Shown: positions 2,938 through 23,507, counted from the stretch's first letter. The stretch is 32,000 nt of DNA from Flavobacteriaceae bacterium (GCA_965224465.1 OZ245049.1:630001-662000), one strand, 5' to 3'. Made by a program: numbers and translations. Notes: generated by a model not told the origin, from the letters alone.

Positions 2938-2955
2938 TTAATTTATAAAATATTT

Positions 2956-5913: not shown

Positions 5914-6110
5914 TATTAATAGATTGATTGTTAAATACCACAAATTGTGGCTTTCAAATATACCAACACGTCTAATTATAAGCTACAGAAAACCACATTT
6001 TAAGTTTATTTTAACATTTTTAAACAAAACACTAACCACTTCATTCAAAGACAGTTTAAAGATACTCCCCTGTAAAAACAGCAGAAAACAAATACAATCT
6101 CACAAGAATC

Positions 6111-6866: not shown

Positions 6867-6884
6867 AAGTTCAATTTATTTTAA

Positions 6885-7139
6885 TTTTAAGTGAAGATAC
6901 GAAACTGAAGTCATTAATAGTTTCGATCCATTGATCATTTTTATATTGGGCAGCATATAATCCACCAATTACTTGTATATGCAATTAAAAGAGAAACCTT
7001 TTAACCATATCTGCAACGTTATTATCTACTCTTTTGTTATCTTATACGATTTCCTTGTAAACACATCCATCCAATCCACTACAGTGGCTGTAATAAAATG
7101 TATTTTTTCTTGATCTCGTATAATGTAACTTTCTTTCAT
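6885..7139 (-). pseudogene. Decayed REP-associated tyrosine transposase (RAYT / IS200-Y1 type) remnant
   Basis: The ATG at 7139 gives MKESYIIRDQEKIHFITATVVDWMDVFTRKSYKITKE, then a stop at 7026-7028. This matches the N-terminal pattern of Bacteroidota RAYT/IS200-like transposases (IRDQ..hF.T.tVv.WiDVFtRk.Y). Downstream the same frame continues with in-frame stops (IITLQIWLKGFSFNCIYK*). A REP hairpin lies immediately upstream at 7180-7209. Confidence 0.55.
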
Positions 7140-7179
7140 TTTTTTATTATTTTCCCTTGTAAGTGTGAGCAATATAGTG

Positions 7180-7209
7180 GCGCAAAGTCGGGAGACTTTT
7201 CGCAGCGGG
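7180..7209 (+). repeat. REP-like hairpin, family 1 (GCGCAAAGTC-GGGA-GACTTTGCGC core, then AGCGGG)
   Basis: The sequence gcgcaaagtcgggagacttttcgcagcggg is self-complementary around GGGA. Related copies lie at 11933-11959 (inverted), 12902-12925 (inverted), 13313-13343 and 25332-25363. Confidence 0.8.
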
Positions 7210-7223
7210 TTTTTTCTATCCCC

Positions 7224-9704
7224 TTAATCTAGCAATTCATAGCCCTCTATTTTAACCGATTTCTTATGATAAAAATCAGCGAACTTCATTTCTAAATATA
7301 GGGTCACTTTTTGTTCTGATCTCCCTTTGTTAAGCATCGAAAAGATCTTGGACAATTCCTTGTTTTTAAAATCATTCAACAGTCCTTTATTCGCTATAAC
7401 ATCTTGCAAGCTCATCATTTTTAACTGTTCCTGCATCCATGTATGTGCTTTGTATCTTTTTTCCTTTAGTTGTAGACTTTCTAATTCTTGCTTCGATATT
7501 GGACTCTTATTTTTCTTCGCAGTGTTCACCTTAGCCAAGACTCTTAAATAGTCTGTTTTTACAATTAAATCTAATTGCACAGCATCACTGTATAGCTTTT
7601 TTAAACTTTTTATTGCCAAGCGATGATATATCACTAAAAAATCTTTGTTTTTGTAAAGCTCTTTTAAATATACCAAAGCAGCTTTTTTATAGATTTTATT
7701 TTTTTTGTTTTCTGCAGCGATCATTGTTTTTTCAAGTGATTTTAATTTAAGGACAACAGGTGTTAAATATCGCATTGTACTAAATTGGTCTGTAAGAACA
7801 ACGGCAACTATATCCTTCGTAATTTCAGCATGCGCTCCTTTAAACAGGTGTGATCTAAAACTGAATTTAAATTCTTTTGTCCTTTTCACTTTCGTTAGGC
7901 GCTCCGCTTTCTTTTCTTTTTTTCGTTGTTTCTTTTTCGGTTTTCCAAGATCAAAGGTATAGGCATATCCAAGCGTTATGGTCAATTCACTTACATCATT
8001 TTGAGCTGTAGTACTTTTGAAAATCTGTACCGCATTTAAATTAAAATTATGCTTCTCAGCAATTACTGTTGAAGCATTCATTCGGAAATTAAGAACCTCT
8101 GTACTACTATCCTTACTAGTATTGGTATTGTAAGCCATCCCCAACATAGTGTTCAGTTTTTTCTTAAAAAACTTTTTACTAATGTCAATATTACCACCTA
8201 TCGCATCACTATCGTCTCTCCCTATATCACTGTAATTGTAATTTATTGAAGTGGATATATTGAGTTCCTTTTTTGGGAATCCGATGGTATATACTGCATT
8301 TGCATTGTGAAAATTATTGGCCTGACCTACTCTAATAACTCCTGCTTGTTCGTTGGCAGAGGATGCTAAATTATAGTTTAAGTTAACATTTTGGCTCCTA
8401 TTCTCACCTTCTCCCAACACCCAATTTATTGTTATATTGGCATTTTGAGAGAGCTGTTTATAATCCAACGCCTCCAAATCTTCATCCGTAAGATCACTAT
8501 CATTAATATCATCAAACTGATTTAAGCTTTTATTTGTGTGGGTAGAAAAATTTGAATATACTCCTGTAATCGTAATTTTATCAGTTGCTTTTAAAATGGC
8601 ATTTACCGCTCCAACAATTCTACTAGTAGCTTGTGTTTTTTGATTGGCTAAATTATCTCTTTGATAACCTATGTTAAATGAAAAATCCAATTTCTCATTA
8701 AACAAGGGCCTAGAAGCGTTCAGTGTAATATTTTCAAAATCGTTATTAAAATAATATGCACCCAAAGTTTCATAACCCGGATCTATACGCTCGTAAGCGA
8801 CCCCTACTTTCATATTATCTATATTCATATCCAAATGTGCATTAAATGCATTATAATATTCTGTAGCTCCTCTATTATTAAATAACAAACCAGCCAAACC
8901 ATTGCCTTTTTTATTAGTAAGTTCCGAGCGTAAATCTTGTGTAATAGCTGTAGAAGCAAACGCTGTTCTTAAGGTGTAATTCCCCCATAACTTAAACTCC
9001 CCATTCATACTAATTACCAAGTTTTCCTTTGGATTTATATTTCTTTCTTCTGGCACTGCGGAAATAGAATTGATGGCATCTTTAGCATAAAACCCTATCA
9101 ATCCAATTTTATAAGCTTCTTTCCCCCATTCCAACTTACCTCCGTAACCCATACGTTTAAAGGCAGGAACTGACTGTTCTTTACCATCGTCCTCTGTTGC
9201 TTTTAAAAGCTTCCCTGCCATGGCACTGAAACTAAAACTACCCGCTGGTGTAAGTTCTATTCCTCCTCCTGTAAATTGGTGACCACTTAAGGTATAAGGA
9301 GAAAAGGTCATCGCTATATCTCCAACATGCCCTTGAATCCATTTATACTTAGGACTTAAACTTACCCTATTAAACTTAAAAGGAGTTTGATAGCCCAAAT
9401 TACTTCCTTGATTGGAAAAACTATAGGTCAAAGGCATATTAAACGTAAGCCAACCAATGTTTAAATTTCCCTGTAAAAAATAGGTGAATGGCGCCCTCGA
9501 ACTACGCCCGTTTCCATTATAAAACACGGAATTAGCAGACAGTCCTCCTCTTATTTTTAAGGGACTATTTTTTATCTTATCCACCGTCTTACTACCTATA
9601 TTTTCAAGGTCTTGTCCCAAGATTGTACTTGTATAACCAAAGCACAAGAACAATATAATCATTAAAAAATAAATTTGAGTAAATGAATATCCTCTTGTAA
9701 TCAC
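7224..9704 (-). CDS. Putative outer-membrane beta-barrel protein with lysine-rich linker and alpha-helical C-terminal extension
   Basis: 826-aa ORF with a signal-like N-terminus (MIILFLCFGYTSTILGQ; alternative ATG at 9662). About 590 aa have alternating aromatic/small-residue, G/N/S/T-rich composition typical of beta-barrels. Then comes GKPKKKQRKKEKKAERLTKVKRTKE and about 230 aa rich in K/L/E. No family was recognised. Confidence 0.6.
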   Translation of the reverse strand: MITRGYSFTQIYFLMIILFLCFGYTSTILGQDLENIGSKTVDKIKNSPLKIRGGLSANSVFYNGNGRSSRAPFTYFLQGNLNIGWLTFNMPLTYSFSNQGSNLGYQTPFKFNRVSLSPKYKWIQGHVGDIAMTFSPYTLSGHQFTGGGIELTPAGSFSFSAMAGKLLKATEDDGKEQSVPAFKRMGYGGKLEWGKEAYKIGLIGFYAKDAINSISAVPEERNINPKENLVISMNGEFKLWGNYTLRTAFASTAITQDLRSELTNKKGNGLAGLLFNNRGATEYYNAFNAHLDMNIDNMKVGVAYERIDPGYETLGAYYFNNDFENITLNASRPLFNEKLDFSFNIGYQRDNLANQKTQATSRIVGAVNAILKATDKITITGVYSNFSTHTNKSLNQFDDINDSDLTDEDLEALDYKQLSQNANITINWVLGEGENRSQNVNLNYNLASSANEQAGVIRVGQANNFHNANAVYTIGFPKKELNISTSINYNYSDIGRDDSDAIGGNIDISKKFFKKKLNTMLGMAYNTNTSKDSSTEVLNFRMNASTVIAEKHNFNLNAVQIFKSTTAQNDVSELTITLGYAYTFDLGKPKKKQRKKEKKAERLTKVKRTKEFKFSFRSHLFKGAHAEITKDIVAVVLTDQFSTMRYLTPVVLKLKSLEKTMIAAENKKNKIYKKAALVYLKELYKNKDFLVIYHRLAIKSLKKLYSDAVQLDLIVKTDYLRVLAKVNTAKKNKSPISKQELESLQLKEKRYKAHTWMQEQLKMMSLQDVIANKGLLNDFKNKELSKIFSMLNKGRSEQKVTLYLEMKFADFYHKKSVKIEGYELLD

Positions 9705-10054: not shown

Positions 10055-11431
10055 TTACTTACAGTTATTGTATACTGATATAATTTTCTTTAAATCATCC
10101 AATTTTTCCAAATCTATTTCAGCCTGGTTTATACTCTCAGGAAAGATAGAACAGTCCGATAAATATGCGTTGATTTTTTCAAACATCTTTACCGAATAGT
10201 TTTTTATAAATAGAGAAGCAGATTTAATTTTTAAGGCCTTTTTTTTGTCTTTCTTCTTAAAATAATACGTGTTATTAAAAAAATGTGATTTGTACAAACT
10301 TAAGTTATCTGTAATCTGTATTTCCTCGTTAAATTTGGAAGAGAAAGCATCGTTGGCTTTCATCCCTAGAAAACATTTATTAGTGGCATCAATACAAATT
10401 CTCACTCCATTTTTTGCTTTGTAATCCCTGTATTTGAATTTTCCGTTTTCTTTAACCGTCTTTAAAGTAGCCACCCCTCCGTAATTTTTTAAACTCGACA
10501 TTCCCGATTTACTGGCATTTAATTCTTCAAATTCAATCGTGATTTCTCCTTTTATGGTGTTCCCTTCTTCATCTGTAACTGTGGCAGGTTCGTTATAAAT
10601 ATTATTAGAGGATTTTTTATCTACTAAAATAGCATTTTGTTTGTTTTTAATTCGAAGATCTAACTTCTTTGCTTGCATATCTCCTAAAGTATATCCAGCA
10701 ATTATCATACGTTTTATCACCATTCTCGCAATATCGTTTTGAATTCTTGAGAGTGTTCTAAATTTTATACTTTCTCCATCAAACAATACAATACGTCCCA
10801 TTTTGTACGTTGCCGTTAAAAACCCTGTGGCATCATAAATCCAAATTTCTATACGCTCCGGATTCTTTAGGTACTTTATGGCGTAGCTCCCCATAGCCAC
10901 GTCTTCTGATTCCTTTTTTTGAAAAACCCTCTTTTTAACTATTCGCAAATTGTAATCTTCAACCGCCTTATATGCTTTTTTATAAGCCGCTACTTTCTCT
11001 TCCATTTCAGGACTTCGTGGTTGTGATTTTGAGAAAAATTCATCTAGTTTTTCTCTATTTATACCTTTTTCATTTAAAAACTCGTTCTTTTTAATTAAAT
11101 GTCTTAATATTGTTTTTCGTCCACTCAACGAAAATTTCAACCCTTTCAATATATAATCCGAATAGTAAATTTCATCACTCCCTGGCTTGGTAAATTCTAA
11201 AAACCGAAACATTTTCTCCCCTTCTAAGGTCATTCTAGTCTCTACTATATGCTCAATATGTATCGCTTGTTTCCCTTCTAAATCTGAAATATTGTACACA
11301 TTTCGTTTTACTTCCTCAAATTGGCAGATTTCTTTTTTATCTAACAATACCTTGTTCTTTTTAACCTTTACATTTTGTCCATATGTTGCCATTACACATA
11401 GCAAGACACTTAATATTCCAAATTTTTTCAT
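10055..11431 (-). CDS. Secreted hypothetical protein
   Basis: 458-aa ORF with signal peptide MKKFGILSVLLCVMATYGQ. No recognisable motifs. Confidence 0.6.
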   Translation of the reverse strand: MKKFGILSVLLCVMATYGQNVKVKKNKVLLDKKEICQFEEVKRNVYNISDLEGKQAIHIEHIVETRMTLEGEKMFRFLEFTKPGSDEIYYSDYILKGLKFSLSGRKTILRHLIKKNEFLNEKGINREKLDEFFSKSQPRSPEMEEKVAAYKKAYKAVEDYNLRIVKKRVFQKKESEDVAMGSYAIKYLKNPERIEIWIYDATGFLTATYKMGRIVLFDGESIKFRTLSRIQNDIARMVIKRMIIAGYTLGDMQAKKLDLRIKNKQNAILVDKKSSNNIYNEPATVTDEEGNTIKGEITIEFEELNASKSGMSSLKNYGGVATLKTVKENGKFKYRDYKAKNGVRICIDATNKCFLGMKANDAFSSKFNEEIQITDNLSLYKSHFFNNTYYFKKKDKKKALKIKSASLFIKNYSVKMFEKINAYLSDCSIFPESINQAEIDLEKLDDLKKIISVYNNCK

Positions 11432-11551: not shown

Positions 11552-11941
11552 AATATAATAATCCCTTCAAGTACGTTGTCAATGATTTTACCTAATGCAT
11601 TTAATATGTCACCCCCACATTAGCCAAAACCCCAACACTATTGACTTTGTTTTAAATTTTTAAAAAAACATCGTTTGTACTTAATTTAAAGCTCGATAAA
11701 AAGCTCAACACAACGAATAGCAACACCCTAAAATGCTTATTCACAGACGACGAAGATAGTTATTTTCTTAGATTATCTTTTTCTTCTATTGAAAAAAAAT
11801 AAGGTAAGACTAAACGCTCTATATTTTATGATTATTTCCCTTCCTGTAATCTCTATTTCTAGCAGTCTCCCCTAGGTAATGATTATAAAAAACAAGTGCA
11901 CATCCAAAGGGCTTAAGTAACTCCAATTACAACTCGCTGCG

Positions 11942-12058
11942 CAAAGTCTCCCGACTTTTGAGCATTGTTTTTATGTGTTACTTTTCCAACGCTCATTTTT
12001 ATTCTTGATTCAATCTCTAAATTGTTGATTTTTTAAATACTTCAATTACTGGATTGTC
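11942..12058 (+). repeat. 117-bp direct repeat, copy 1 (includes an inverted family-1 REP half)
   Basis: Near-identical to 12909-13024, with a single 1-nt indel in a T-run. The repeat is caaagtctcccgactttt gagcattgtttttatgtgttacttttccaacgctcatttttattcttgattcaatctctaaattgttgattttttaaatacttcaattactggattgtc. Confidence 0.9.
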
Positions 12059-12242
12059 TACCCAGCTCTCACACGATTGTATCGTGTGACTGTAGCAGCT
12101 TAAGAATTCTTAATATAAACTCTTTTCACCCATAACAATACTATAATAAAAAACAAATAACTGCATGGCTTACTCATAGATCCTACACAATACAATCATG
12201 GCAGCTGTGCAGCGGGTTCGGTTTACACCCTTAGCAGATCGA

Positions 12243-12497
12243 TTAATAATGATATCTACATCCAATAATTACTAATACATCATTTCCAAACGAATATACT
12301 AGTCTGTGTTCACCATCTATTCGCCTTGACCAATACCCTTGTAAATCGTGTTTTAATGACTCTGGATTCCCAATTCCATCAAAAGGATCCCTAAGTGTTG
12401 ACTTTATTAATTCGTTAATTCTTTTTATTTTTTTCTTATCAATAGATTGCCAATAAATATAATCTTTCCAAGCTGTTTTAGTCCAAGTTATTCTCAT
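12243..12497 (-). CDS. yoeB: YoeB/Txe family type II toxin (mRNA interferase)
   Basis: 84 aa. WKDYIYWQ ... GYWSRRIDGEHRLVY ... CRYHY is the canonical YoeB pattern. It overlaps the upstream antitoxin gene by 4 nt. Confidence 0.9.
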   Translation of the reverse strand: MRITWTKTAWKDYIYWQSIDKKKIKRINELIKSTLRDPFDGIGNPESLKHDLQGYWSRRIDGEHRLVYSFGNDVLVIIGCRYHY

Positions 12498-12745
12498 TCT
12501 TCAATTAAGTTATGCATCTCTATCTTTCCTGTTTTAGACTCTTTTATTGACTGTATCAAAACATCTCTGTTTTTACCTGATAATAAATAACTTGTTTCTT
12601 TTAATGAATTGTACTCATCTAAAGAAATTAAAACTAAATCTTTATTGTCTTTTCTTTTAATAATCAATTCTTCAACATCATTAATAACTACATCCATCCA
12701 TTTTTTTAAATTTACTCTTAAGTCTGTATAATTTACTACCCTCAT
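12494..12745 (-). CDS. yefM: Phd/YefM family type II antitoxin
   Basis: 83 aa. The N-terminus YTDLRVNLKKWMDVV ... LISLDEYNSLKETSYLL is typical of Phd/YefM, and the gene is translationally coupled to yoeB. Confidence 0.9.
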   Translation of the reverse strand: MRVVNYTDLRVNLKKWMDVVINDVEELIIKRKDNKDLVLISLDEYNSLKETSYLLSGKNRDVLIQSIKESKTGKIEMHNLIEE

Positions 12746-12908
12746 ACTATTATCTTTTTCACAAATATACTAAAAAAGTACGTAATTAAGTACTTACTAT
12801 AGAAATTTACCCCTTTCAGTGGGTTTGAAACCAACTGCTTCCCCTTATCCGAAACATCTACCCCATAAATAATACACAAATATCTAATACATTTTTTAAT
12901 TCCGCTGA

Positions 12909-13024
12909 CAAAGTCTCCCGACTTTGAGCATTGTTTTTATGTGTTACTTTTCCAACGCTCATTTTTATTCTTGATTCAATCTCTAAATTGTTGATTTTTT
13001 AAATACTTCAATTACTGGATTGTC
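12909..13024 (+). repeat. 117-bp direct repeat, copy 2
   Basis: See copy 1 at 11942-12058. It is followed at 13047-13060 by cccgatcgcgcgga, the terminal motif of the family-2 palindromic element. Confidence 0.9.
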
Positions 13025-13224
13025 CACAAGTGTCACTGGAAGCAATCCCGATCGCGCGGACGTTGTGTTTTGTTTAAGGTTGGCTACTTTAGTAAGTAAA
13101 TCTATATCCGTTTTAAAAATTGCATCTGTACCTCTCGCATTAAATACTATTTTGTAAGCATCCTATTTTTATTTGTTAGCATTTCAAAAGAAGGCTTTAA
13201 ATTGTGTAGAGGTTTTGATGTACG

Positions 13225-13343
13225 AATAAAATGTATCTTTTCTTGATCTCGTATAATGTAACCTTCTTTCATTTTTTTATTCTTTTCCCTTGTTAGTGTG
13301 AGCAATATAGTGGCGCTAAGTCGTGAGACTTTGCGGAGCGGGG
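13225..13343 (-). pseudogene. Second RAYT N-terminal stub plus family-1 REP hairpin (repeat of 7092-7209)
   Basis: An approximately 118-bp block is homologous to 7092-7209. The ATG at 13272 gives MKEGYIIRDQEKIHFI, then similarity to the other copy and to RAYTs is lost. The REP hairpin gcgctaagtcgtgagactttgcggagcgggg lies at 13313-13343. Confidence 0.6.
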
Positions 13344-13452
13344 AAACTTGGTTTAGGGTTAAAACTAGCTCCGTTTTGGAGTAGGTGGCTTGTTCTCCCA
13401 AGAAAAGTGTTAAGAGGAAGATAAATATATATTTTAGTTGTTTTAAAATCAT
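13339..13452 (-). pseudogene. Truncated third copy of the small-toxin leader
   Basis: MILKQLKYIFIFLLTLFLGEQATYSKTELVLTLNQVSP aligns with MNFLNFIKHIFLFLLTFLLGAQTTYAKTVVVLPTNSV of the two intact toxins (about half the residues identical). The similarity ends where the REP/RAYT block begins. The 101-aa track ORF 13147-13452 is therefore a chimera. Confidence 0.6.
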
Positions 13453-13458
13453 TTAATC

Positions 13459-13827
13459 TTAAACAGAAGTTGGGTTAACATCATTATTGTAACCATCTAC
13501 TTCATCTTGTAACTCTTGATCCCAAATATACTCCATTTCTATTTTTCCATCAGAAAATAATGTGAACTTTGCTCTGTTCCAATTTGTATGAATAGGTGGT
13601 TCATTTTGAGTTATATCATACAGTTTATGAATATATTCGTCATCAATCTCAATATTAAAAACATCCAACCATTCTTTTTCTTTATTATCTTTATAATAAT
13701 AACCTGTATATTCTACAACTTTATTCAGTCTCATCATTTCTAAAACAGCACTTAAAAATTTTTCATCTTTAGAGAAAGTTCCAACAATTGACGTAGCTAT
13801 GTGTGTAAATATTTCTATTTGATTCAT
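13459..13827 (-). CDS. Immunity protein for the adjacent nuclease toxin (YezG/DUF600-like, tentative)
   Basis: This 122-aa acidic ORF starts 14 nt after the toxin stop. The pattern (W..V....G.YY ... W....F.L..DGK...EY.WD.E) resembles YezG-type immunity proteins, which pair with YeeF-type nucleases. Confidence 0.6.
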   Translation of the reverse strand: MNQIEIFTHIATSIVGTFSKDEKFLSAVLEMMRLNKVVEYTGYYYKDNKEKEWLDVFNIEIDDEYIHKLYDITQNEPPIHTNWNRAKFTLFSDGKIEMEYIWDQELQDEVDGYNNDVNPTSV

Positions 13828-13841
13828 CTTAAAATATTAAA

Positions 13842-14726
13842 TTAACGATTAAATGGCTGACCATCAATCGTAAATTGAACTTTAAATTTAGAAGGTCTTT
13901 TAGAAGTTCCTTCAAAAATAGCTTTCACTTGAATTTTCACATCCTTACCAGCTACCATTTCTCTTGCCCATAAATTCTCCATATTCTTCCAAGCTCCTTG
14001 GTTCAATACTCCTTTTTGCGAGTACATATTAATTTGCTCTCCTGGCCCAAAAAAACGAGAAGCTACAATGTGCCCTCCCTGATCAGAACCTTTAATACCA
14101 TCTTTAATATCTACTGCCCGTATTTGTTGATTCCCTAAACGAATCCTTGCTATATCATCTAAATCTGCATTCGTTTTTACAACTCTACCTAAATCATCCG
14201 TTTGAAAAATGAAACCATCAACCTCATATTTCATGTTTTTAGCCAATGGGATTTTGTTTAAAATAGGATTACCTCTTGTTCCTATTACTGTTCTACCATT
14301 AGCTACAATTCTATCTTTATAAAACGTACCCCATTTTTTTCCCGTTCCATCAACTATTTCATATGCCTTATCAGCTATTTTATTATACTTCCAATTTGTA
14401 GGGAAATCATTTTTAAAGGTTTTTAATGCCATCTCTAAAACATCATCCACCGTATTAGCCAAGTAACCAACATAGTATTCAGAAAAATCATAGGTGTTTT
14501 GAGCTGAAACACTCTCAGACACTACAAACTTATACTTTTCTTTTAGAAAATCAATATTAGGTTGTTGCTCTTTTTCTAAAGAGTTTACTTTTTGATTATA
14601 ATCAATAGTAAAAATAACAGAATTTGTTGGTAAAACGACCACCGTTTTGGCATACGTGGTTTGTGCTCCTAACAAAAATGTTAGAAGGAATAGAAATATA
14701 TGTTTTATAAAATTAAGAAAGTTCAT
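13842..14726 (-). CDS. Small secreted polymorphic toxin, Endonuclease_NS_2-like (YeeF/YobL-type) nuclease tip
   Basis: The ATG at 14726 gives signal peptide MNFLNFIKHIFLFLLTFLLGAQTTYA. The C-terminus GSDQGGHIVASRFFGPGEQINMYSQKGVLNQGAWKNMENLWAREMVAGKDVKIQVKAIFEGTSKRPSKFKVQF matches the GH-N-N-W-ME-W layout of the PF13930-type DNA/RNA non-specific endonuclease toxin domain. The track start at 14756 is a TTG. Confidence 0.75.
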   Translation of the reverse strand: MNFLNFIKHIFLFLLTFLLGAQTTYAKTVVVLPTNSVIFTIDYNQKVNSLEKEQQPNIDFLKEKYKFVVSESVSAQNTYDFSEYYVGYLANTVDDVLEMALKTFKNDFPTNWKYNKIADKAYEIVDGTGKKWGTFYKDRIVANGRTVIGTRGNPILNKIPLAKNMKYEVDGFIFQTDDLGRVVKTNADLDDIARIRLGNQQIRAVDIKDGIKGSDQGGHIVASRFFGPGEQINMYSQKGVLNQGAWKNMENLWAREMVAGKDVKIQVKAIFEGTSKRPSKFKVQFTIDGQPFNR

Positions 14727-15204
14727 CTTCTTCGAAATAATGTCCTTCTTTATCAAAACGAATTAAAAATTCTTCTAAAGAATCTGCTATTTTTTCATTG
14801 AAATAATAAATATCATTTTTTTCTTCCCGAGCTTCTTTGTCTATAAGTAGATATAATCCTTCGTTTATTTCAAAAAAAATTAACTTATTTTGATATTCTA
14901 AACCATTGTATATCTCTAATTCAGGGTCTTCATCGTAATATCCCTCTCTATTATTAATTATTTTGAAGCTATTCGGGTTCAAAAATGTGTCGTTAGAATA
15001 TATTTTTTTGTGAAAAAAGAAACCATATCCAATTTCAGTATAAAATTTCTTTAATTCCAAAGGAATAGTTAATTCTGTGTCACATTTTTGTATTATGTCT
15101 TCACTTGATTTAAACAGCAAGTGTTTAAAATCATTATATTGACTTCTAATATTCTCATCTGTAGAAGGTAAAATATATTCTTTCAAAAATAAAAAATCAC
15201 TCAT
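14713..15204 (-). CDS. SUKH-1 (SMI1/KNR4) family immunity protein, copy 1
   Basis: 163 aa. TELTIPLELKKFYTEIGYGFFF matches the hallmark LP..lk.Fy...nG motif. Its stop overlaps the next toxin start (ATGAACTTTCTTAA). It differs from the copy at 16786-17277 by one residue. Confidence 0.75.
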   Translation of the reverse strand: MSDFLFLKEYILPSTDENIRSQYNDFKHLLFKSSEDIIQKCDTELTIPLELKKFYTEIGYGFFFHKKIYSNDTFLNPNSFKIINNREGYYDEDPELEIYNGLEYQNKLIFFEINEGLYLLIDKEAREEKNDIYYFNEKIADSLEEFLIRFDKEGHYFEEDELS

Positions 15205-15210
15205 CTTAAT

Positions 15211-15315
15211 TTATTTAAATAATTCTCTAGCTGGTGAACCTGCTCCATGTATCCCTCCTTGATGTTGGTCGGGGAATCTTTCTTGATGTGAATTCCACCA
15301 TTCATGTGGACCCGA
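15211..15315 (-). pseudogene. C-terminal stub of an older (probably HNH/EndoVII-type) toxin, copy 1
   Basis: My translation is SGPHEWWNSHQERFPDQHQGGIHGAGSPARELFK, with the stop (TAA at 15211-15213) 6 nt before the SUKH ATG. This is the position a toxin C-terminus would occupy. The His-rich H..W..H ... H.GG.H pattern is reminiscent of HNH-fold toxin ends. The frame hits a stop about 11 codons further upstream, inside the palindromic element. Confidence 0.45.
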
Positions 15316-15489
15316 TCGCGCGGAATTAAAATCCGTGCGTCCCCTCATACACAACAACTAACCCATAAATAACACACAAATATCTAATGCATATTTTAAG
15401 ATTTGCATGAGCAGCCTTATGTGATGTACTTTGTGGGCACGGATTTAAAATCCGCGCTATCACGTTGTTGGTATGTCCGCGCCATCGGG
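15311..15489. repeat. 179-bp nested-palindrome (MITE/BIME-like) element, REP family 2, copy 1
   Basis: Terminal inverted repeats are cccgatcgcgcgga (15311-15324) and tccgcgccatcggg (15476-15489). Two internal hairpins lie in opposite orientation: gcgcgga-attaaaa-tccgtgc (15318-15338) and gcacgga-tttaaaa-tccgcgc (15437-15457). There is also caacaac (about 15353-15360) against gttgttg (15464-15470). Confidence 0.75.
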
Positions 15490-15522
15490 ATTTTATGTAC
15501 TTTGTTATTTTAATTAATAAAA

Positions 15523-15966
15523 CTATCTACTTTCCATTTTATCATATATCTCCCCTGTATTAACATCCACTACAAAACGAAAACCATCCGCATAAACTTC
15601 AAGTAACTCTTTCCCTTTATATTTTTCAATATACTTTTTGTAATGCTCGGGAGTTATAAAATTTGATTCTTTTTTTTGTTCGGGGAAAATTTGACCAAAC
15701 CCGACAACATTATCATATGGTAATTGCCATTTTAATTTACCAGTAAAATCATAACAAAATAATTGACTTGGATTTGCTAAACACCTTTCTTTCCAAATTT
15801 GATGAGTTTCTAATTTACCCCAATCTAAATCATTCTCTAATGGAGTTGTTTTAAAACAAACGACTTCATTAAAAGATTCTACTTTATCTATAAAAGTAGA
15901 ACTTGGAAAATGAATTTTTTCATTGCCAACTTTTATGCTATTAGAAGATATTAACACGTATTTCAT
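15523..15966 (-). CDS. Putative immunity protein for the adjacent toxin (family not recognised)
   Basis: This 147-aa ORF begins 8 nt after the toxin stop, has no signal peptide, and is unique to this cassette. Confidence 0.55.
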   Translation of the reverse strand: MKYVLISSNSIKVGNEKIHFPSSTFIDKVESFNEVVCFKTTPLENDLDWGKLETHQIWKERCLANPSQLFCYDFTGKLKWQLPYDNVVGFGQIFPEQKKESNFITPEHYKKYIEKYKGKELLEVYADGFRFVVDVNTGEIYDKMESR

Positions 15967-15974
15967 CTATAAAA

Positions 15975-16799
15975 TTAATTTAGGTAATCAGACACGTCAC
16001 CCATTGGCTTGAACCAACTTTGTGGGATTGCAGGATTGTTTCTAATCTCAAATTGAACAGCTCCACCTGGTTGATGTACTTGACCTGGCCAGTCTTGTGG
16101 TCTTGCAACACTTTTTATAACTTTTGTTCCTGCAGGAACTTTCACTATCGATATTTGAGCAGGCTTTACAATATCCCCACTATTATCTAAAATAGGTAAA
16201 GCAAGTTTCTTAATCATATCATCTTGTGATGTAAATTTTTGAAAATCCTCTACCGAAATTAACCAAGGTCTATTAGGGTTCCAAGAATTATGAACCCTCA
16301 CAAACAAAGCTTCTTGTGACAAAACTATATCATCAATAGAATGGGCAAAATTATAAGGATTAACGAAACTGCTACTTGCATTAATTTCAGTCAATATCTC
16401 AGATTGAGAAACTACAGTTTTACTACCTAATGCATCTGTTTTAGAAACTTTTGAATAAAGACTTTTAGCCTCTGTTATTGTTAAGTTATCCCATTTAGCA
16501 ATTAAACTAGGAATATCATCCACCACCTCAGCCAAGTAACCAACATAGTATTCAGAAAAATCATAGGTGTTTTGAGCTGAAACACTCTCAGACACTACAA
16601 ACTTATACTTTTCTTTTAGAAAATCAATATTAGGTTGTTGCTCTTTTTCTAAAGAGTTTACTTTTTGATTATAATCAATAGTAAAAATAACAGAATTTGT
16701 TGGTAAAACGACCACCGTTTTGGCATACGTGGTTTGTGCTCCTAACAAAAATGTTAGAAGGAATAGAAATATATGTTTTATAAAATTAAGAAAGTTCAT
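15975..16799 (-). CDS. Small secreted polymorphic toxin with the same leader and a different tip (possible TNT-like NAD+ glycohydrolase)
   Basis: The first 90 aa from the ATG at 16799 are identical to the toxin at 13842-14726, and the sequence is unrelated after YYVGYLA. The tip LFVRVHN ... KKLALP ... ISIVKVPAGTKVIKSVARPQDWPGQVHQPGGAVQFEI resembles the R...LP...y.V.kp..v..G...PwfGqPGGg.Q layout of the TNT/DUF4237 domain. The family call is tentative. Confidence 0.6.
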   Translation of the reverse strand: MNFLNFIKHIFLFLLTFLLGAQTTYAKTVVVLPTNSVIFTIDYNQKVNSLEKEQQPNIDFLKEKYKFVVSESVSAQNTYDFSEYYVGYLAEVVDDIPSLIAKWDNLTITEAKSLYSKVSKTDALGSKTVVSQSEILTEINASSSFVNPYNFAHSIDDIVLSQEALFVRVHNSWNPNRPWLISVEDFQKFTSQDDMIKKLALPILDNSGDIVKPAQISIVKVPAGTKVIKSVARPQDWPGQVHQPGGAVQFEIRNNPAIPQSWFKPMGDVSDYLN

Positions 16800-17277
16800 C
16801 TTCTTCGAAATAATGTCCTTCTTTATCAAAACGAATTAAAAATTCTTCTAAAGAATCTGCTATTTTTTCATTGAAATAATAAATATCATTTTTTTCTTCC
16901 CGAGCTTCTTTGTCTATAAGTAGATATAATCCTTCGTTTATTTCAAAAAAAATTAACTTATTTTGATATTCTAAACCATTGTATATCTCTAATTCAGGGT
17001 CTTCATCGTAATATCCCTCTCTATTATTAATTATTTTGAAGCTATTCGGGTTCAAAAATGTGTCGTTAGAATATATTTTTTTGTGAAAAAAGAAACCATA
17101 TCCAATTTCAGTATAAAATTTCTTTAATTCCAAAGGAATAGTTAATTCTGTGTCACATTTTTGTATTATGTCTTCACTTGATTTAAACAGCAAGTGTTTA
17201 AAATCATTATATTGACTTCTAATATTCTCATCTGTAGAAGGTAAAATATATTCTTTCAAAAATAAAAAATTACTCAT
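16786..17277 (-). CDS. SUKH-1 (SMI1/KNR4) family immunity protein, copy 2
   Basis: 163 aa, with one substitution (D3N) relative to 14713-15204. It has the same 14-nt overlap with the downstream toxin start. Confidence 0.75.
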   Translation of the reverse strand: MSNFLFLKEYILPSTDENIRSQYNDFKHLLFKSSEDIIQKCDTELTIPLELKKFYTEIGYGFFFHKKIYSNDTFLNPNSFKIINNREGYYDEDPELEIYNGLEYQNKLIFFEINEGLYLLIDKEAREEKNDIYYFNEKIADSLEEFLIRFDKEGHYFEEDELS

Positions 17278-17283
17278 CTTAAT

Positions 17284-17388
17284 TTATTTAAATAATTCTC
17301 TAGCTGGTGAACCTGCTCCATGTATCCCTCCTTGATGTTGGTCGGGGAATCTTTCTTGATGTGAATTCCACCATTCATGTGGACCCGA
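17284..17388 (-). pseudogene. C-terminal stub of an older toxin, copy 2
   Basis: Same sequence as 15211-15315, shifted by 2073 bp. Confidence 0.45.
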
Positions 17389-17550
17389 TCGCGCGGAATT
17401 AAAATCCGTGCGTCCCCTCATACACAACAACTAACACACAAATATCTAATGCCTTTTTTAAGATTTGCATGAGCAGCCTTATGTGATGCACTTTATGGGC
17501 ACGGATTTCAAATCCGCGCTATCACATTGGTGGTATACCCGAGCCAGAGG
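17384..17550. repeat. Nested-palindrome element, REP family 2, copy 2 (12-nt deletion, degraded right end)
   Basis: The left end cccgatcgcgcgga at 17384 is identical to copy 1. The internal hairpin gcacggatttcaaatccgcgc lies at 17499-17519. The right terminus is diverged (acccgagccagagg). Confidence 0.65.
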
Positions 17551-17723
17551 ATTAAGTTAAAAAAAGTGTGAGTTTGCCCTGTCTGCAAAGGTAACAAATA
17601 GGTAATAGCTAAAAATACTTTTAGATTGATTATTTTTCAATAATTACCCTATATTTGCTTACAGAGAAGCAATAATGCGATAAAACAAGCTAATTATATA
17701 CCTTTATAACACTCGGTGAGAAT

Positions 17724-18045
17724 ATGAAAATAGTGAGAATGCAAAAGAAAATGTCACAAGCCGACTTAGCTAAACTTGCTGAAGTGCATCAAAAAAAACA
17801 TTTCTAAGTATGAAAAAGATGGTGTAGTACCATCTGCTTTAGTTTTAAAAGAAATTGCTCGAGCTCTTGGAGTTACTACCTGTTTTTTATTAGGTAGCCA
17901 AAGTGATACTGTAATTAAAGACGTAAAACTGCTAAACTTCTTTAAAGAAATAGACAATATGCCTGATAACCTAAAAGGTTCTTTAGTGCAGGTTATTGAA
18001 GCGTATGTACAAAACCACAAAGCTAAACAGGCTTTTGCTAAATAA
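17724..18045 (+). pseudogene. XRE-family HTH regulator interrupted by a +1 frameshift in an A8 tract
   Basis: The ATG at 17724 gives MKIVRMQKKMSQADLAKLAEVHQKKHF, then a stop. The next frame continues NISKYEKDGVVPSALVLKEIARALGVTTCFLLG... (track ORF 17776-18045). Removing one A from the run at 17791-17798 yields a canonical 106-aa HTH_3 protein. Confidence 0.7.
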
Positions 18046-18047
18046 TT

Positions 18048-18494
18048 ATGGAAAATCAAAAAAATATATTCTCAACTTTAGTTTTGGAACAAAACCCAAG
18101 TTATGTTGAAGAATTAGAAAAGAAATACAATATTCAATTACCTCCTGTATTTAAAGCTTTTTGTGAGGTTTTCGCCTTAACATCTATACAGCCATCTGAT
18201 AATCATTACTTACTTTATCAGGATAAAGAAGTTGGGTTTGAAGAATTTGAACAATCATTAGAAGAACTTATATCTGTTTATATTACACAAGGAGAGTATT
18301 ATCAAAATAACAAAATGCTCCCTATAGCTACATCAGGCATTCATTCAGGTGGAATTTGTATTGGATTAGAAGGAAAAGACCAAGATAAAATATTCGTAGA
18401 CAATGAGTCTTACAATAATAGGTTTCAACCTATTGCTTCTAATATTCTAGATTTTATAAATAAGCTTTACGAAGTGCATTTTGATAATGTTTAG
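18048..18494 (+). CDS. SUKH-1 (SMI1/KNR4) family immunity protein
   Basis: 148 aa. VEELEKKYNIQLPPVFKAFCEVF is the SMI1/KNR4 hallmark. It starts 2 nt after the XRE stop. Its stop TAG (18492-18494) overlaps the stop TAA (18491-18493, opposite strand) of the WHH toxin. Confidence 0.75.
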   Translation: MENQKNIFSTLVLEQNPSYVEELEKKYNIQLPPVFKAFCEVFALTSIQPSDNHYLLYQDKEVGFEEFEQSLEELISVYITQGEYYQNNKMLPIATSGIHSGGICIGLEGKDQDKIFVDNESYNNRFQPIASNILDFINKLYEVHFDNV

Positions 18495-19309
18495 AAACCT
18501 AAAAATTCGAATAACCCCTGTAACTTTTTTGTAATTATAGATTTACCTCCAGAATGAGGAAACCCTCCCAAATTTCCTGTATGTACTTTACTCTTAGCAG
18601 GGAATAGAGTAAATCCATCTTCAACATGATGCCAAGTGTACTTTACCCATTTATTACCTTCAAATAATTCGAACAGAGAAGATATTGGTTTCCAACGATA
18701 ATTACCACTTACTAAAAACCCGTTAGGGTCTTTAGCAGGCCAAGAACTGCCAACTTTTTCTATACCAAATTTCTTTGCCAAAGAAGCATTTGCTTGAGTA
18801 AAATCAGTACTTCCTCCTGTTAAGTTTGGTGATTCAAATTTAAATTTTCCAGCACCCGTACCATCTGTAAAATTCAAGACAGGAGAATAACCTCTTAAAT
18901 CGGGAAGTCCATTTTTATAGGTGATAGAAACAGGGACACCATCTATTGTTTTTGTTGTAGTGTAATTTAATTGACCAGCATAACCTTCTGGGTGTTTTAG
19001 AGTACCATAAAAATCATCTAATTTTTGAAGTTGAGTATTAGTCAATTTGTCCAACTTAGATAAAAATGAAGCATCAGCAACATCATCTAAACTATTTATT
19101 AGTCTTTTTGCGTTAGTTAATTCTCCTAAAGCATCTAATTTTCTTATGATATTCGCTTTCCCCACCTTGTCAGCCAAAAGTCTTTGAGAAGTCTTTGAGA
19201 TATCTTCAACTAATTCATCAGGTAGTTTTTCAGATGCAATCAAGGACTTATTAAATTCTAAAACATCATCTGCACTTCTTTTCAATGCTTTCCCTAATAA
19301 AGCGTCTCC
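18491..19309 (-). pseudogene. Polymorphic toxin B, C-terminal segment with WHH-type HNH/EndoVII nuclease tip (cut off by IS66)
   Basis: The C-terminus KYTWHHVEDGFTLFPAKSKVHTGNLGGFPHSGGKS fits the WHH nuclease toxin pattern (WHH ... H ... H.GG). The frame is open upstream of the track start (a TTG at 19285), right up to the IS66 end at 19318. Confidence 0.75.
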
Positions 19310-19396: not shown

Positions 19397-19750
19397 ATGT
19401 TAGGATTAGGTACAGAACACACGTATTATTATCACTTATCTGCAGTTGATATGCGAAAAGGATTTAATGGATTAAGTGGATTAGTTAGTGAGCACATGGA
19501 ACAAGAGCGAGATAGAAATAGTGTTTATGCATTTATCAATAAGCAAAAAAATAAACTAAAACTTCTTCATTGGCGACCTGGAGGATTTGTACTGTATTAT
19601 AAACGATTGGAACGAGGTATTTTTGAGCTTCCAAAATACGACATTGAAGATGGATTAGTAGTTTTGAGTTATACCCAAATGGTTATGGTTTTAGACGGAA
19701 TTAGTATTATAAATACTCAGAAAAACGAACGTTATTTAGAGGCTAAATAA
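19397..19750 (+). CDS. tnpB: IS66 Orf2 (TnpB) protein
   Basis: 117 aa. VDMRKGFNGLSGLV ... FINKQKNKLKLLHWRPGGFVLYYKRLERG is the conserved IS66 Orf2 pattern. Confidence 0.9.
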   Translation: MLGLGTEHTYYYHLSAVDMRKGFNGLSGLVSEHMEQERDRNSVYAFINKQKNKLKLLHWRPGGFVLYYKRLERGIFELPKYDIEDGLVVLSYTQMVMVLDGISIINTQKNERYLEAK

Positions 19751-19793
19751 TTCAATAAAACTGTAGGTTTTACCTGCTATTTAGTCTTGTTTT

Positions 19794-21296
19794 TTGTATA
19801 TTTATAGTGTGGAAAACAATACAATAGACATACAAAAAGAGCTGGTAATTTTAAAGATTGAACTTGAAAAAACAGCTCAAGAACTAGCTGAAATTAAGCA
19901 GCAATACGAGCAGCTTAAAAGAATGGTTTTCGGGTCTAAAAGCGAACGTTTTATCCCTGTTGACACAAATCAATTGTCGCTTTTCGGAAAAATAATAGCT
20001 GAGAAAGAAGAGGCATACAAAAAACATATTGTAATCTACGAAAGAAAACAAAAGAAGAAAGGAAAGAAAAAACCTGTTCGCTCTTCTATACCTGCGCATT
20101 TTCCGCGAGTAGAAGAGATTATAGAGCCTAAGCACATAGAAGAAGGAGCTGTAAAAATAGGAGAAGAAGTTACAGAACTTTTAGAAATAACGCCTCTTTC
20201 CGTTTTTGTAAGACGAATTGTAAGACCTAAATATGCACTTCCGGAAGAAAAAGGCGTTGTTATAGCAGAATTACCAAGCTTACCGATACCTAAAGGAAAT
20301 GCATCAGCAAGTTTATTGGCCTTTATACTTATTTCAAAATTTGTAGACCATTTACCACTTTACAGATTAATTCAAATTTTTAAACGACAAGATTTAAAAG
20401 TAAGTAAATCAACAATTGGAGGATGGGTATCTAAAAGTTCGGAGCTTATCGCTCCTTTATACGATACATTTAAGGCTCAGTTTTTAGAAAATGCCAATTA
20501 TATTCAAGCAGACGAATCTCCTATAAAGGTTTTAGATAAAGACAAGAAAAAATCAACACACAGAGGGTATATGTGGGTGTATCGAAATCCTGTTAAAAAT
20601 TTAGTTCTTTTTGAATACAATAAAGGGAGAGGAAAAGTTGTTCCAGAAGAGTTTTTTAAAGATTTCAATGGGACACTACAGTCCGATGGGTATGCTGCAT
20701 ACCAAAACTTAACAACAAAAGGAGAAATTACTCTTTTAGGTTGCATGGCTCATGCTAGGCGGTATTTTGAGAAGGCGCTGGATAATGATCCTAAAAGAGC
20801 GGATGTTGTTTTGTTGGAAATTCAAAAGCTATACAAGATAGAACGTAAAATAAAAGAACAAGAATTAACTATTGAGCAAACTAAAGCATATAGAGAAAAA
20901 CATGCATCACCTGTTTTAGACGGAATAGAAATTTATCTTACAAAAGAGCGAAAAAACGTACTGCCTAAAAGTGCCATAGGAAAAGCAATTGCTTATACTC
21001 TTAAAATATGGCAAAACCTAAAACTATACATCGATGATGGCAGGTTTGAAATAGACAACAATAATATAGAAAATGCCATAAGACCTTTAGCTATTGGCAG
21101 AAAAAATTATCTCTTTGCTGGCAGTCATGAGTCCGCACAAAACATAGCTCTATTTTATAGCTTTTTTGCTACTTGCAAAAAGAATAACGTAAACCCACAT
21201 ACGTGGCTATGTGATGTCCTTAATAGATTACCAGAACATAAGGCTAATAAACTTTCGGAGTTACTGCCTCAAAATTGGAAGCCTGTTGATAAATAA
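19794..21296 (+). CDS. tnpC: IS66-family transposase (TnpC)
   Basis: About 500 aa. It has an N-terminal coiled coil with LKRMVFGSKSERF, a central HLPLYR and ADESPIKVL, and C-terminal CMAHARRYF and IENAIRPLAIGRKNYLFAGS. All are typical IS66 TnpC blocks. The exact start is uncertain because the track start is a non-ATG codon. Confidence 0.9.
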   Translation: MYIYSVENNTIDIQKELVILKIELEKTAQELAEIKQQYEQLKRMVFGSKSERFIPVDTNQLSLFGKIIAEKEEAYKKHIVIYERKQKKKGKKKPVRSSIPAHFPRVEEIIEPKHIEEGAVKIGEEVTELLEITPLSVFVRRIVRPKYALPEEKGVVIAELPSLPIPKGNASASLLAFILISKFVDHLPLYRLIQIFKRQDLKVSKSTIGGWVSKSSELIAPLYDTFKAQFLENANYIQADESPIKVLDKDKKKSTHRGYMWVYRNPVKNLVLFEYNKGRGKVVPEEFFKDFNGTLQSDGYAAYQNLTTKGEITLLGCMAHARRYFEKALDNDPKRADVVLLEIQKLYKIERKIKEQELTIEQTKAYREKHASPVLDGIEIYLTKERKNVLPKSAIGKAIAYTLKIWQNLKLYIDDGRFEIDNNNIENAIRPLAIGRKNYLFAGSHESAQNIALFYSFFATCKKNNVNPHTWLCDVLNRLPEHKANKLSELLPQNWKPVDK

Positions 21297-22481: not shown

Positions 22482-23507
22482 TAATATTATATGCTTGTCC
22501 GCTAGTTTCCCTAATATTTTTGTTGTATTTTCATAAAACATAAATAATCGATATGAGATTAATTGAATTTAGTGAGCACTACCCAGATGAAGCCAGTTGT
22601 AAAGCAGCATTTAAGTCCTATCGCGAAAAAGAAGGGGTTAAGTGTAAAAAGTGTGGAGGAACTACTCATTATTGGAAAAAGAAACGAGAACAGTGGGAAT
22701 GTAAAAACTGTACTCACAGAACAACGTTGAAAAGCGGTACTGTTATGCAAAGCAGTAAATTACCTTTTAAGTATTGGTTTATAGCTATGCATTTAATAAC
22801 AAGCACAAAAAAATCATTTTCGGCTAAAGAGATTCAACGTCAGATAGGTCATAAAAGATATGAGCCTATTTGGGCAATGGTTCATAAGTTAAGATGCGTT
22901 ATGGGGTTAAGAGACGATGAATATCAGCTTAGTGATGAGGTTGAATTGGATGATGGGTTTTTTGAAACCGTTTCAATAACAAGAGATAAAACAGCACCTT
23001 TAAAAAGGGGGCGAGGAAGTCAAAGACAATCAATAGTATTAGTAAGTATAGAGTCTAAACTAGAATCAGAACACTATAACAGCAAGAAACACAGGGTGAA
23101 TAAGAGAGTGAAATTCCTAAAGATGAAAGTAATCAGTTCTTTAAAGAAAGAAGAGGTAGCTCAAACTGTAAATCAAATGGTTGAAGGAGGTAGCAAAATA
23201 ATTTCCGATGGATCAAATAGCTTTAATGACTTGACTAAGGATTTTGAACTAGTCTCTAATGTTGTGCCAAAGAAAAATATCAATTCTATTTTACCTTGGG
23301 TTCACAAAGCAATTAGTAACGCCAAAAGGCTATTACTGGATGTCCATCATAGAATAGATGATGATTTTCTTCAAAATTACTTGAACGAGTACTGCTACAA
23401 ATTCAATAGGAGAACATTTAATAACTTATTCGACAGGCTTATGATTGCAGCGGTATCATATAGATGGAATTATCTTGGGGAAGTTAACGGATAAGCATAT
23501 AATATTA
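22482..23507 (+). mobile_element. IS1595-family insertion sequence (1,026 bp)
   Basis: The terminal inverted repeats are TAATATTATATGCTTGTCCGCTA (from 22482) and TAACGGATAAGCATATAATATTA (ending 23507), matching at about 21 of 23 positions. It holds a single transposase ORF. I could not find a target-site duplication. Confidence 0.75.
22553..23494 (+). CDS. IS1595-family (ISXO2-like) transposase with N-terminal zinc ribbon
   Basis: 313 aa. It has the zinc-ribbon cysteines CKKCGG ... CKNCTH and a DDE-type body. The C-terminal NYLNEYCYKFNRR is typical of IS1595/ISXO2-like transposases. Confidence 0.85.
   Translation: MRLIEFSEHYPDEASCKAAFKSYREKEGVKCKKCGGTTHYWKKKREQWECKNCTHRTTLKSGTVMQSSKLPFKYWFIAMHLITSTKKSFSAKEIQRQIGHKRYEPIWAMVHKLRCVMGLRDDEYQLSDEVELDDGFFETVSITRDKTAPLKRGRGSQRQSIVLVSIESKLESEHYNSKKHRVNKRVKFLKMKVISSLKKEEVAQTVNQMVEGGSKIISDGSNSFNDLTKDFELVSNVVPKKNINSILPWVHKAISNAKRLLLDVHHRIDDDFLQNYLNEYCYKFNRRTFNNLFDRLMIAAVSYRWNYLGEVNG

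Follow-up and report, generated by a model that had tools for sequence, protein, structure and literature searches.

Colicins and pyocins are not known to have a Sec signal; they possess large domains for receptor binding and translocation, and leave the cell by lysis. The myxobacterial SitA proteins are small signal-peptide polymorphic toxins of a diderm host; they have a short N-terminal ‘escort’, are encoded in many paralogous cassettes alongside sitI immunity genes, and are lipoproteins (with a lipobox Cys) moved by TraAB outer-membrane exchange. Polymorphic toxins equipped with a Sec signal only are already recognised as a class of their own, ‘T2SS’ (Zhang et al. 2012, PMC3482391), and in the Bacteroidota N-terminal toxin modules without the C-terminal domain (CTD) of type IX secretion (T9SS) have a precedent in TANFOR (PMC7073777). 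The locus described here lies in a stretch of 32,000 nucleotides from Flavobacteriaceae bacterium (GCA_965224465.1 OZ245049.1:630001-662000); this whole stretch is referred to as the window, and positions are counted from its first letter. With good confidence, the locus can be read as a series of compact (about 200-470 aa), self-contained, Sec-exported, bacteriocin-like polymorphic toxins with cognate immunity, arranged in tandem. The sequences suggest that its novelty is a new N-terminal module, the leader, together with a set of unannotated toxin tips and immunities in a known kind of system, and not a new kind of system or a new logic. The original prediction, made from the sequence of the window, had proposed an undescribed delivery or toxin family. 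The leader, which matches no model in Pfam, NCBIfam or PADLOC, does stand as a new module, while the logic of the locus was already known (PMC3482391, PMC7073777).

The core of the array consists of two open reading frames (ORFs) on the minus strand, at 13842-14726 (toxin 1; 294 aa, counted from the ATG) and 15975-16799 (toxin 2; 274 aa). Residues 1-90 of the two proteins are identical and everything thereafter is unrelated. The common N-terminus reads MNFLNFIKHIFLFLLTFLLGAQTTYAKT...FSEYYVGYLA (it begins MNFLNF and ends VGYLA) and forms the leader, a signal peptide followed by a conserved segment, which occupies 14457-14726 in toxin 1 and 16530-16799 in toxin 2 (E 1e-45 for the latter against a leader hidden Markov model, HMM). 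The remainder of each protein is its tip, encoded at 13842-14456 in toxin 1 (an Endonuclea_NS_2 nuclease) and at 15975-16529 in toxin 2. On the same strand, a small ORF lacking a signal peptide follows each toxin gene, 14 nt after toxin 1 (13459-13827, 122 aa; immunity candidate 1, or imm1) and 8 nt after toxin 2 (15523-15966, 147 aa; imm2). A third leader (13342-13452, minus strand) starts 6 nt past the last immunity ORF and ends after about 38 codons; its match to the leader HMM spans 13342-13449 (E 4e-10) and covers model positions 3-38 only, and its DNA is 79% identical to that of the other two leaders. The ORFs with identical N-termini and unrelated ends, the signal-peptide-free ORFs 8-14 nt downstream and the diverged third leader had all been proposed originally, and each is borne out by the ORF list or the HMM. 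The third leader is cut by a repeated element (13225-13342, minus strand), composed of a repetitive extragenic palindromic (REP)-like palindrome and a transposase-like stub, which is 93% identical to 7092-7209 and whose inverted-repeat arms at 13318-13340 pair with 11935-11957. Because its genes are tightly spaced or overlapping, the array is probably co-transcribed and translationally coupled. Its host is Flavobacteriia-like, with a GC content of about 32%. Rfam and tRNA scans of the window returned no match, and scans for sigma-70 promoters, terminators and TTTG-N17-23-TAnnTTTG, a promoter motif of Bacteroidetes, gave counts not above chance.

Tip 1 matches PF13930 (DNA/RNA non-specific endonuclease) at E 2.4e-26 over residues 164-288 of toxin 1 in a Pfam scan, as had been guessed. 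An exhaustive HMMER search of 1.84 billion representatives returned 2397 hits, most of them to tip 1, which forms the C-terminal end of hundreds of proteins, 200-2500 aa long, with many different N-termini; such placement is characteristic of polymorphic toxin tips. For tip 2, neither Pfam nor NCBIfam nor the PDB sequences gave a match. In particular, it does not match PF14021, the family suggested for it originally, either as a single sequence or as a profile, though its predicted fold may resemble that of NADase toxins. Comparison of a tip-2 profile with PDB sequences, hhalign against a TNT tip and Pfam scans of 9 tip-2 homologues gave nothing significant. Nevertheless tip 2 is a conserved domain, borne by proteins with at least five different short signal-peptide leaders. 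In its AlphaFold (AF2) model, which has a mean predicted local distance difference test score (pLDDT) of 60 and reaches 65-90 in the tip core, the top Foldseek matches are all NADase toxins, namely Tse6, Rhs1-CT, Tne2 and a fungal NADase. The E-values of these matches are weak (0.008-0.3, on a model of mean pLDDT 60), with probabilities of 0.47-0.99 (at least 0.75 for the bacterial toxins) and TM-scores of 0.32-0.54 when normalised to target length. On this fold evidence, tip 2 is taken as a probable NADase-type toxin (an NAD(P)+ glycohydrolase).

Elsewhere, on unrelated contigs, each tip is again accompanied by its own downstream ORF, which bears out the polymorphic toxin/immunity array of the original prediction. 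The product of imm1 is 46% identical (E 2e-39) to that of an ORF lying directly after a tip-1 homologue with a different leader (locus L016). Homologues of imm2 lie directly after tip-2 homologues in three loci (L005, L008 and L006), again behind different leaders, and the L006 ORF is 38% identical to imm2 (E 3e-18, BLASTP). Neither imm1 nor imm2 has a Pfam, NCBIfam or PADLOC match. Because they recur after their own tips behind other leaders, imm1 and imm2 fit cognate immunity genes, of which such co-inheritance would be expected. A candidate tip-specific, co-inherited immunity gene directly downstream, one of the features of membership in the polymorphic toxins, is present in imm1, in imm2 and in the SUKH gene that follows an HNH toxin, considered below. 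From domain assignment the tips would be toxic, and their neighbours would be expected to neutralise them.

The leader belongs to a wider family. A word-indexed protein search with the window leader alone found a single relative, a misleading result when set against exhaustive HMMER and profile searches: among the top 150 HMMER hits there were about 20 representative clusters with the leader, their C-termini unrelated, and the profile search added 33 further leader proteins, including hypothetical proteins of Tenacibaculum maritimum. Leader scans located the family at 3 genome loci, in metagenome-assembled genomes (MAGs) of Roseivirgaceae, Cytophagales and Flavobacteriales, and at 21 metagenome loci. 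The family is known from T. maritimum, from Cytophagales and Flavobacteriales MAGs and from marine metagenomes. The fetched loci hold 35 leader ORFs with tips of at least 80 aa, which form 18 tip clusters; further leader-borne tips occur among the database representatives beyond these. Pfam recognises WHH, AHH, TNT, colicin/pyocin DNase (E 3e-42, in protein P0102) and, weakly, RES tips on the leader, and about half of the leader-borne tips have no Pfam annotation. It had been proposed that distinct C-termini on the leader be counted; with at least 18 tip clusters, the leader is clearly fused to many others. This decisively contradicts the outcome named beforehand as a refutation, a leader that is never joined to other C-termini. 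The feature by which polymorphic toxins are defined, a shared N-terminal part on many unrelated C-terminal toxins (PMC3482391), is therefore present. Leader-toxin-immunity cassettes stand in tandem in L001, L002, L005 (four in a row), L008, L019, L020 and L026, and tandem arrays are the rule.

After the signal peptide, the leader has the consensus KTELVLPQNQVSFSIEQNQSFKSLEKEVQPNIGFLKEK.KFV.SEGVSAQN...FSE..V.YLA, with a mean column identity of 72% among sequences drawn from 50%-identity representative clusters. Paralogous leaders elsewhere are about 55-70% identical, so the leader is less constant than its description as such had implied. Between loci, the mature leader shows a synonymous divergence (dS) of 0.35-1.45 and a ratio of nonsynonymous to synonymous divergence (dN/dS) of 0.08-0.77, values that are noisy with 62 codons compared; the leader is therefore conserved as a protein and not merely by recent DNA copying. 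Gln22, just past the hydrophobic core of the signal peptide, is nearly invariant. This fits the Bacteroidetes Q-rule, by which signal peptidase I substrates have Gln at +1 after the signal peptide (PMC5837995), and suggests cleavage before Q22, which would leave a mature constant part of 69 aa. AlphaFold is confident of a helix in the signal peptide alone; for the mature leader it gives a pLDDT of about 30 in the full-length model and of 52-61 with a 36-sequence alignment (predicted TM-score, pTM, 0.24), as coil and two short helices. In these models it looks like an extended peptide module and not a folded domain. The motif ‘KTELVLP’ could, as speculation, be TonB-box-like. Two candidates were rejected: P0040, a hit of 1996 aa matched in 21 stretches, was dropped as a repeat protein of low complexity, and a double-glycine leader for a C39 peptidase, considered from the ‘..LANAGG’ junction, was set aside since GG is unconserved (NTVDD and EVVDD in the window), the spacing is wrong for it and the proteins have a Sec signal.

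Other short leader types, designated B, C, D and minimal, co-occur with the window type (A) in arrays. By eye, type A seems to share an F-S-[IL]-x-x-x-Q core with at least two other short leader types of the same arrays, D and minimal. An hhalign comparison of types A and B gave 76% probability over a stretch that includes the signal peptide, which is suggestive only. On the 253-kb contig of L026 (Ga0209295_1000040), three cassettes with another short leader (MKKNYILI...NHGKDSTTVAKKTRSFKNLDAQLDANFFSLNNQSQKF...) are followed by a leader-A cassette (2334-9556); two of the three have near-identical leaders over at least 120 aa and different tips, and the stretch ‘FFSLNNQSQ’ of this leader is similar to ‘VSFSIEQNQS’ in leader A. 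A third short type of leader, comprising a signal peptide and ...CPL[EV]IL...NFESW.LL.KA...DEI.K.GGY.KW, is seen in T. maritimum CP170088.1 (L010, 11175-12590), in P0002 and in L016 (4001-4918), and heads a two-toxin protein (TNT and EndoU, 471 aa) as well as a tip-1 homologue (305 aa). On two independent metagenome contigs, a leader ORF cut to 135 aa (...YWTCIIILDTKLRYICIN) is followed by the same small GIY-YIG-like ORF (L001, 1688-1921; L008, 2630-2863), and a GIY-YIG element may have inserted into a leader toxin gene in both.

Compared with the described systems, the window family shares with the ‘T2SS’ class a signal peptide, exchangeable C-terminal toxins (HNH-fold nucleases and others), a downstream immunity gene (SUKH included) and tandem cassettes (PMC3482391). 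That class is a catch-all drawn up by signal peptide, whereas the window family is a discrete one, defined by a conserved segment of 65-70 aa without a Pfam or NCBIfam model; its proteins are also unusually small and have no repeats and no releasing peptidase. With the TANFOR toxins (PMC7073777; TIGR02542) it shares the phylum, a Sec signal followed by an N-terminal module, the absence of a T9SS CTD, overlapping tips (AHH, WHH) and SUKH immunity. However, TANFOR is a folded domain of about 147 aa heading very large Fn3-rich proteins, while the leader is shorter, has no confident fold and heads proteins of 200-470 aa. The TANFOR model matches neither window toxin, though the same model detects, below threshold, a giant neighbour of the leader in T. 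maritimum. Neisseria MafB (PMC4287609) likewise has a diderm host, a signal peptide, a conserved N-terminus, a variable toxin end, downstream immunity and several cassettes per island. It differs in having DUF1020 and a partner gene, mafA, in its island, neither of which is detectable in the window: DUF1020/MafB has no Pfam match there, the gene upstream of the window toxin is the SUKH gene of a preceding toxin and not mafA, and there is no sequence similarity. A soluble toxin with a tightly linked immunity gene is also common to the nuclease colicins and S-type pyocins, whose DNase is the tip of P0102; homology to them outside this DNase tip was not found, though a leader region without a confident predicted fold is reminiscent of colicin translocation domains. 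The leader contains neither Cys nor lipobox, unlike SitA, and its host phylum differs. Pfam and NCBIfam scans of the window toxins gave no RHS/YD, LXG, PAAR, MafB, CdiA/haemagglutinin, TANFOR or T9SS CTD match, and the proteins are too short to hold RHS/YD, LXG, PAAR or CdiA/haemagglutinin parts, so the absence of known trafficking modules noted originally is upheld. The same is true of the T9SS sorting domain, which had been thought unlikely: neither the window toxins nor 20 other leader proteins gave a match to a CTD (Por_Secre_tail, type A or B), and the C-terminus is occupied by the toxin domain.

Upstream of each of the two identical leaders lie the remains of another cassette. A frame of 48 codons, at 15211-15357 and again at 17284-17430, ends in 33 aa (GPHEWWNSHQERFPDQHQGGIHGAGSPARELFK) that match the C-terminus of an intact leader-HNH toxin in L005 (...GPHEWWNAHPARFPDQHQGGIHGAGSPARELFK); the matching C-terminal stubs of an HNH-superfamily toxin (33 codons and a stop) lie on the minus strand at 15211-15312 (copy 1) and 17284-17385 (copy 2). 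Each stub is followed by a gene for a SUKH immunity protein of 163 aa, at 14713-15204 (copy 1; PF14568 3e-9, PF09346 9e-9) and 16786-17277 (copy 2), both on the minus strand. The two copies are one residue apart, and the 3' end of the SUKH gene overlaps the start of the next toxin gene. In L005, a metagenome contig, the intact HNH toxin is followed by a SUKH gene, 78% identical to that of the window, after which comes the next leader, overlapping the SUKH gene just as in the window. This would be the intact ancestral arrangement, and from its order the window SUKH appears to be the immunity gene of the preceding HNH toxin, here truncated by a palindromic element, and not a part of the leader cassette. 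A SUKH gene and a toxin-tail stub had been recognised as part of the repeated block, and both are there; what has changed is that the true frame of the stub is the 48-aa ORF and that the SUKH gene belongs to the toxin before it.

Local alignment places this repeat at 14439-15492 and 16512-17553, with 1025 of 1041 positions identical (98.5%). Its period is 2073, becoming 2062 past a single 11-nt indel. The repeat of about 1.04 kb, its period and its content had been described correctly, with the exception of the indel, given as 12 nt, and of the ends. It contains the palindromic element, the toxin-tail stub, the SUKH gene, the toxin start (which overlaps the SUKH 3' end by 14 nt) and the entire leader. 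The core at 14457-15358 (902 nt) has a single mismatch, and the palindromic portion at 15367-15484 is only 91% identical. The palindromic element itself is about 190 nt long, has 25-nt inverted arms (GATCGCGCGGAATTAAAATCCGTGC) and is present in the window in two and a half copies: upstream at 17373-17553 (minus strand; arms 17387-17411 and 17499-17523), where it truncates the HNH-type toxin gene, downstream at 15300-15492 (minus strand; arms 15314-15338 and 15437-15461, 88% complementary), and as a partial third copy at 12836-12899. The two full copies are 89-91% identical and match no Rfam family; the element may be a miniature inverted-repeat transposable element (MITE) or a REP-like mobile element. 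The duplication ends on one side in this element, where identity drops from 99.9% to 91%, and on the other precisely at the junction of leader and tip. The two identical leaders would have arisen when a block of about 0.9-1.04 kb, comprising the palindromic element, the truncated HNH toxin tail, the SUKH gene and the next leader, was recently duplicated or recombined; this history we infer from the alignment. It had been argued that the constant part is what is duplicated. This holds as polymorphic-toxin logic, yet the 100% identity of the two leaders would be a by-product of recent duplication and not a designed constant region. Because neighbouring cassettes with another leader type in L026 show the same pattern of near-identical leaders and different tips, and the large toxins of the window do so as well, the sequences argue for junction-targeted recombination as a general route of diversification for such islands.

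The cassettes are not stand-alone oddities. They typically lie inside toxin islands, downstream of giant fn3 toxins, some of them TANFOR-like, or of HExxH toxins. In T. maritimum L010, a leader cassette follows a 1252-aa fn3 toxin with a sub-threshold TANFOR match and its immunity gene, so that a TANFOR-like giant physically adjoins leader cassettes (an intact leader toxin lies at about 2,819,725-2,820,699 of CP170088.1); in L015 the leader follows a 1618-aa fn3 toxin and Imm49, and in L013 a leader stub follows a 1829-aa fn3...AHH toxin which adjoins an SprB/Por_Secre_tail gene. The fn3 giants of L013 and L015 have no TANFOR match. In L006, an HExxH toxin related to those of the window lies upstream of a type-B short-leader toxin. 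The window array is likewise downstream of, and on the same strand as, large signal-peptide toxins with HExxH (HELAHGAFQLKH), at 23456-25291 and 28017-32000 (both minus), whose sequences agree over 340 aa (96% identity) and thereafter are wholly different; the larger of the two ORFs continues past the window end. These toxins have no Pfam or NCBIfam match, and the leader HMM finds no leader-like segment inside any large toxin.

In the proposed model, each toxin would consist of a Sec signal peptide, probably cleaved before Gln22, a conserved segment of about 65-70 aa without a confidently predicted fold and, past a short Gly/Asp-rich junction, an exchangeable C-terminal toxin, which in the window would be a non-specific nuclease or a probable NAD(P)+ glycohydrolase. 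The next gene would encode a cytoplasmic immunity protein specific to the preceding tip. Since the immunity proteins have no signal peptide and the tips act on cytoplasmic targets, the toxin would have to get out of the producing cell and into a competitor's cytoplasm. As the one part that all the toxins have in common, the leader segment could carry the information for the journey, mediating outer-membrane export, target entry or both. This role is graded lower than the cassette logic. That the segment of about 70 aa after the signal peptide (core F-S-[IL]-E...PN[IL]GFLKEK) is a new autonomous N-terminal export or delivery signal for CTD-less toxins, serving a route distinct from T9SS CTD recognition and possibly common to the TANFOR/Fn3 giant toxins, is put forward tentatively, as a possibility that on balance is doubtful. 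Several points weigh against the model as a whole. The available contexts revealed no conserved gene that could be a partner for outer-membrane export. The NADase call for tip 2 is drawn from Foldseek matches with weak E-values and has no sequence support. Shallow alignments (18 and 36 sequences), and not disorder, may account for the low pLDDT of the leader. Many database copies of the leader are short stubs of 57-148 aa, meaning that a fraction of the family is decaying, and no second assembly of this genome was found in the protein collections for comparison.

The position of the cassettes can be read in two other ways. They could be orphan or reserve modules behind a large main toxin, mainly a recombination reservoir, as are the orphans of contact-dependent inhibition (CDI) or Rhs systems, and not independently deployed. 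Such a role would suit leader copies lying directly after a giant fn3 toxin and its immunity gene, as in L010, L013 and L015, the window array lying downstream of the HExxH toxins on their strand, and the many truncated leaders. However, no intact cassette lacks a start codon, signal peptide or complete leader of its own, constraint acts on the leader at the protein level, the large toxins have no leader-like segment and hence no homology tract for tip swapping, and arrays without a visible large toxin exist (L005, L026); a reservoir is accordingly quite improbable. Alternatively, the small toxins could be cargo riding on a giant toxin or a T9SS-linked surface protein, with the leader as an adaptor-binding peptide. 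Toxins encoded separately beside TANFOR genes have been noted before, and an interaction with the TANFOR protein was proposed for them (PMC7073777); the SprB and Por_Secre_tail genes beside the giant toxin and leader stub of L013 point the same way, as does a leader predicted to have no fold of its own, which is expected of a peptide that folds on binding. The giant neighbours vary, however, being fn3 proteins in L010 (TANFOR-like), L013 and L015 and HExxH proteins in the window and L006, and some arrays have no giant neighbour in view, so carriage of this kind is considered unlikely.

The pairing of a small toxin with a small antidote gene, and the YoeB/YefM pair next door, would also be compatible with intracellular toxin-antitoxin or anti-phage modules that are not secreted weapons. 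This is scarcely credible, given that every toxin, and no antidote, carries a conserved N-terminal Sec signal, that the tip repertoire is that of inter-bacterial polymorphic toxins, and that PADLOC matches and, in a viral-contig scan, phage copies are lacking. Finally, the 2,073-bp repeat could be an assembly artefact of a single stub-SUKH-leader block, as the near-perfect 902-nt core and the want of a second assembly might suggest. Both copies, however, have distinct unique flanks on either side and are separated by 16 substitutions and the 11-nt indel; the unrelated contig of L026 also has near-identical leaders on adjacent cassettes with different tips, and the large HExxH toxins of the window, with their common part and abrupt divergence, show a like pattern. 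An artefact is thus very unlikely, and even if true it would leave the leader family and its modularity unaffected. The reading of the locus as an array of exported polymorphic toxins is preferred over each of these.

Several further features surround the array. A WHH-nuclease toxin ORF without a leader (18491-19285, minus strand), whose first residues are a junction-like ‘SADDVLE’, begins some 110 bp away from an IS66 element (TnpB, TnpC) and may have been truncated by it. The position expected of its immunity gene is taken by a convergent SUKH gene, preceded by a helix-turn-helix (HTH) gene on the opposite strand. Plus-strand features of this region lie at 17776-18045, 18048-18494, 19397-21296 and 22553-23494, and an IS1595 element lies further upstream. 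On the other side of the array, a YefM/YoeB pair (flanked region 12243-12745) lies between direct repeats of about 120 nt (11942-12061 and 12909-13027), which are 98% identical and 966 nt apart, suggesting a small repeat-flanked insert right beside the toxin array. Downstream of the array and on the same strand are genes for two signal-peptide proteins of 826 and 458 aa (7224-9704 and 10055-11431, both minus) without a Pfam or NCBIfam match; by eye, the 826-aa protein is like an outer-membrane beta-barrel with a Lys-rich C-terminal extension. Elsewhere, the leader array of L020 is followed (4245-7850) by ORFs of 884 and 283 aa that from their N-terminal sequences look like a primase (CHC2 zinc finger) and a tyrosine recombinase, respectively, and the toxin of L016 is preceded by a gene with a PF10136 SpecificRecomb match. 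Some arrays may ride on integrative mobile elements.

How antibacterial toxins lacking a T9SS CTD are exported from Bacteroidota is a question that has been put explicitly for the TANFOR toxins. The leader family offers a minimal and tractable handle on it, with toxins of 200-470 aa in which all is exchangeable save a leader of about 70 aa, and it is present in a cultivable fish pathogen, Tenacibaculum maritimum. The family is also a source of many unannotated toxin and immunity domains, and the window is a clear example of island remodelling via recombination at the leader/tip junction. If the leader does act as an autonomous signal, it would point to a secretion or import route by which CTD-less toxins cross the Bacteroidota outer membrane, enter their targets, or both.

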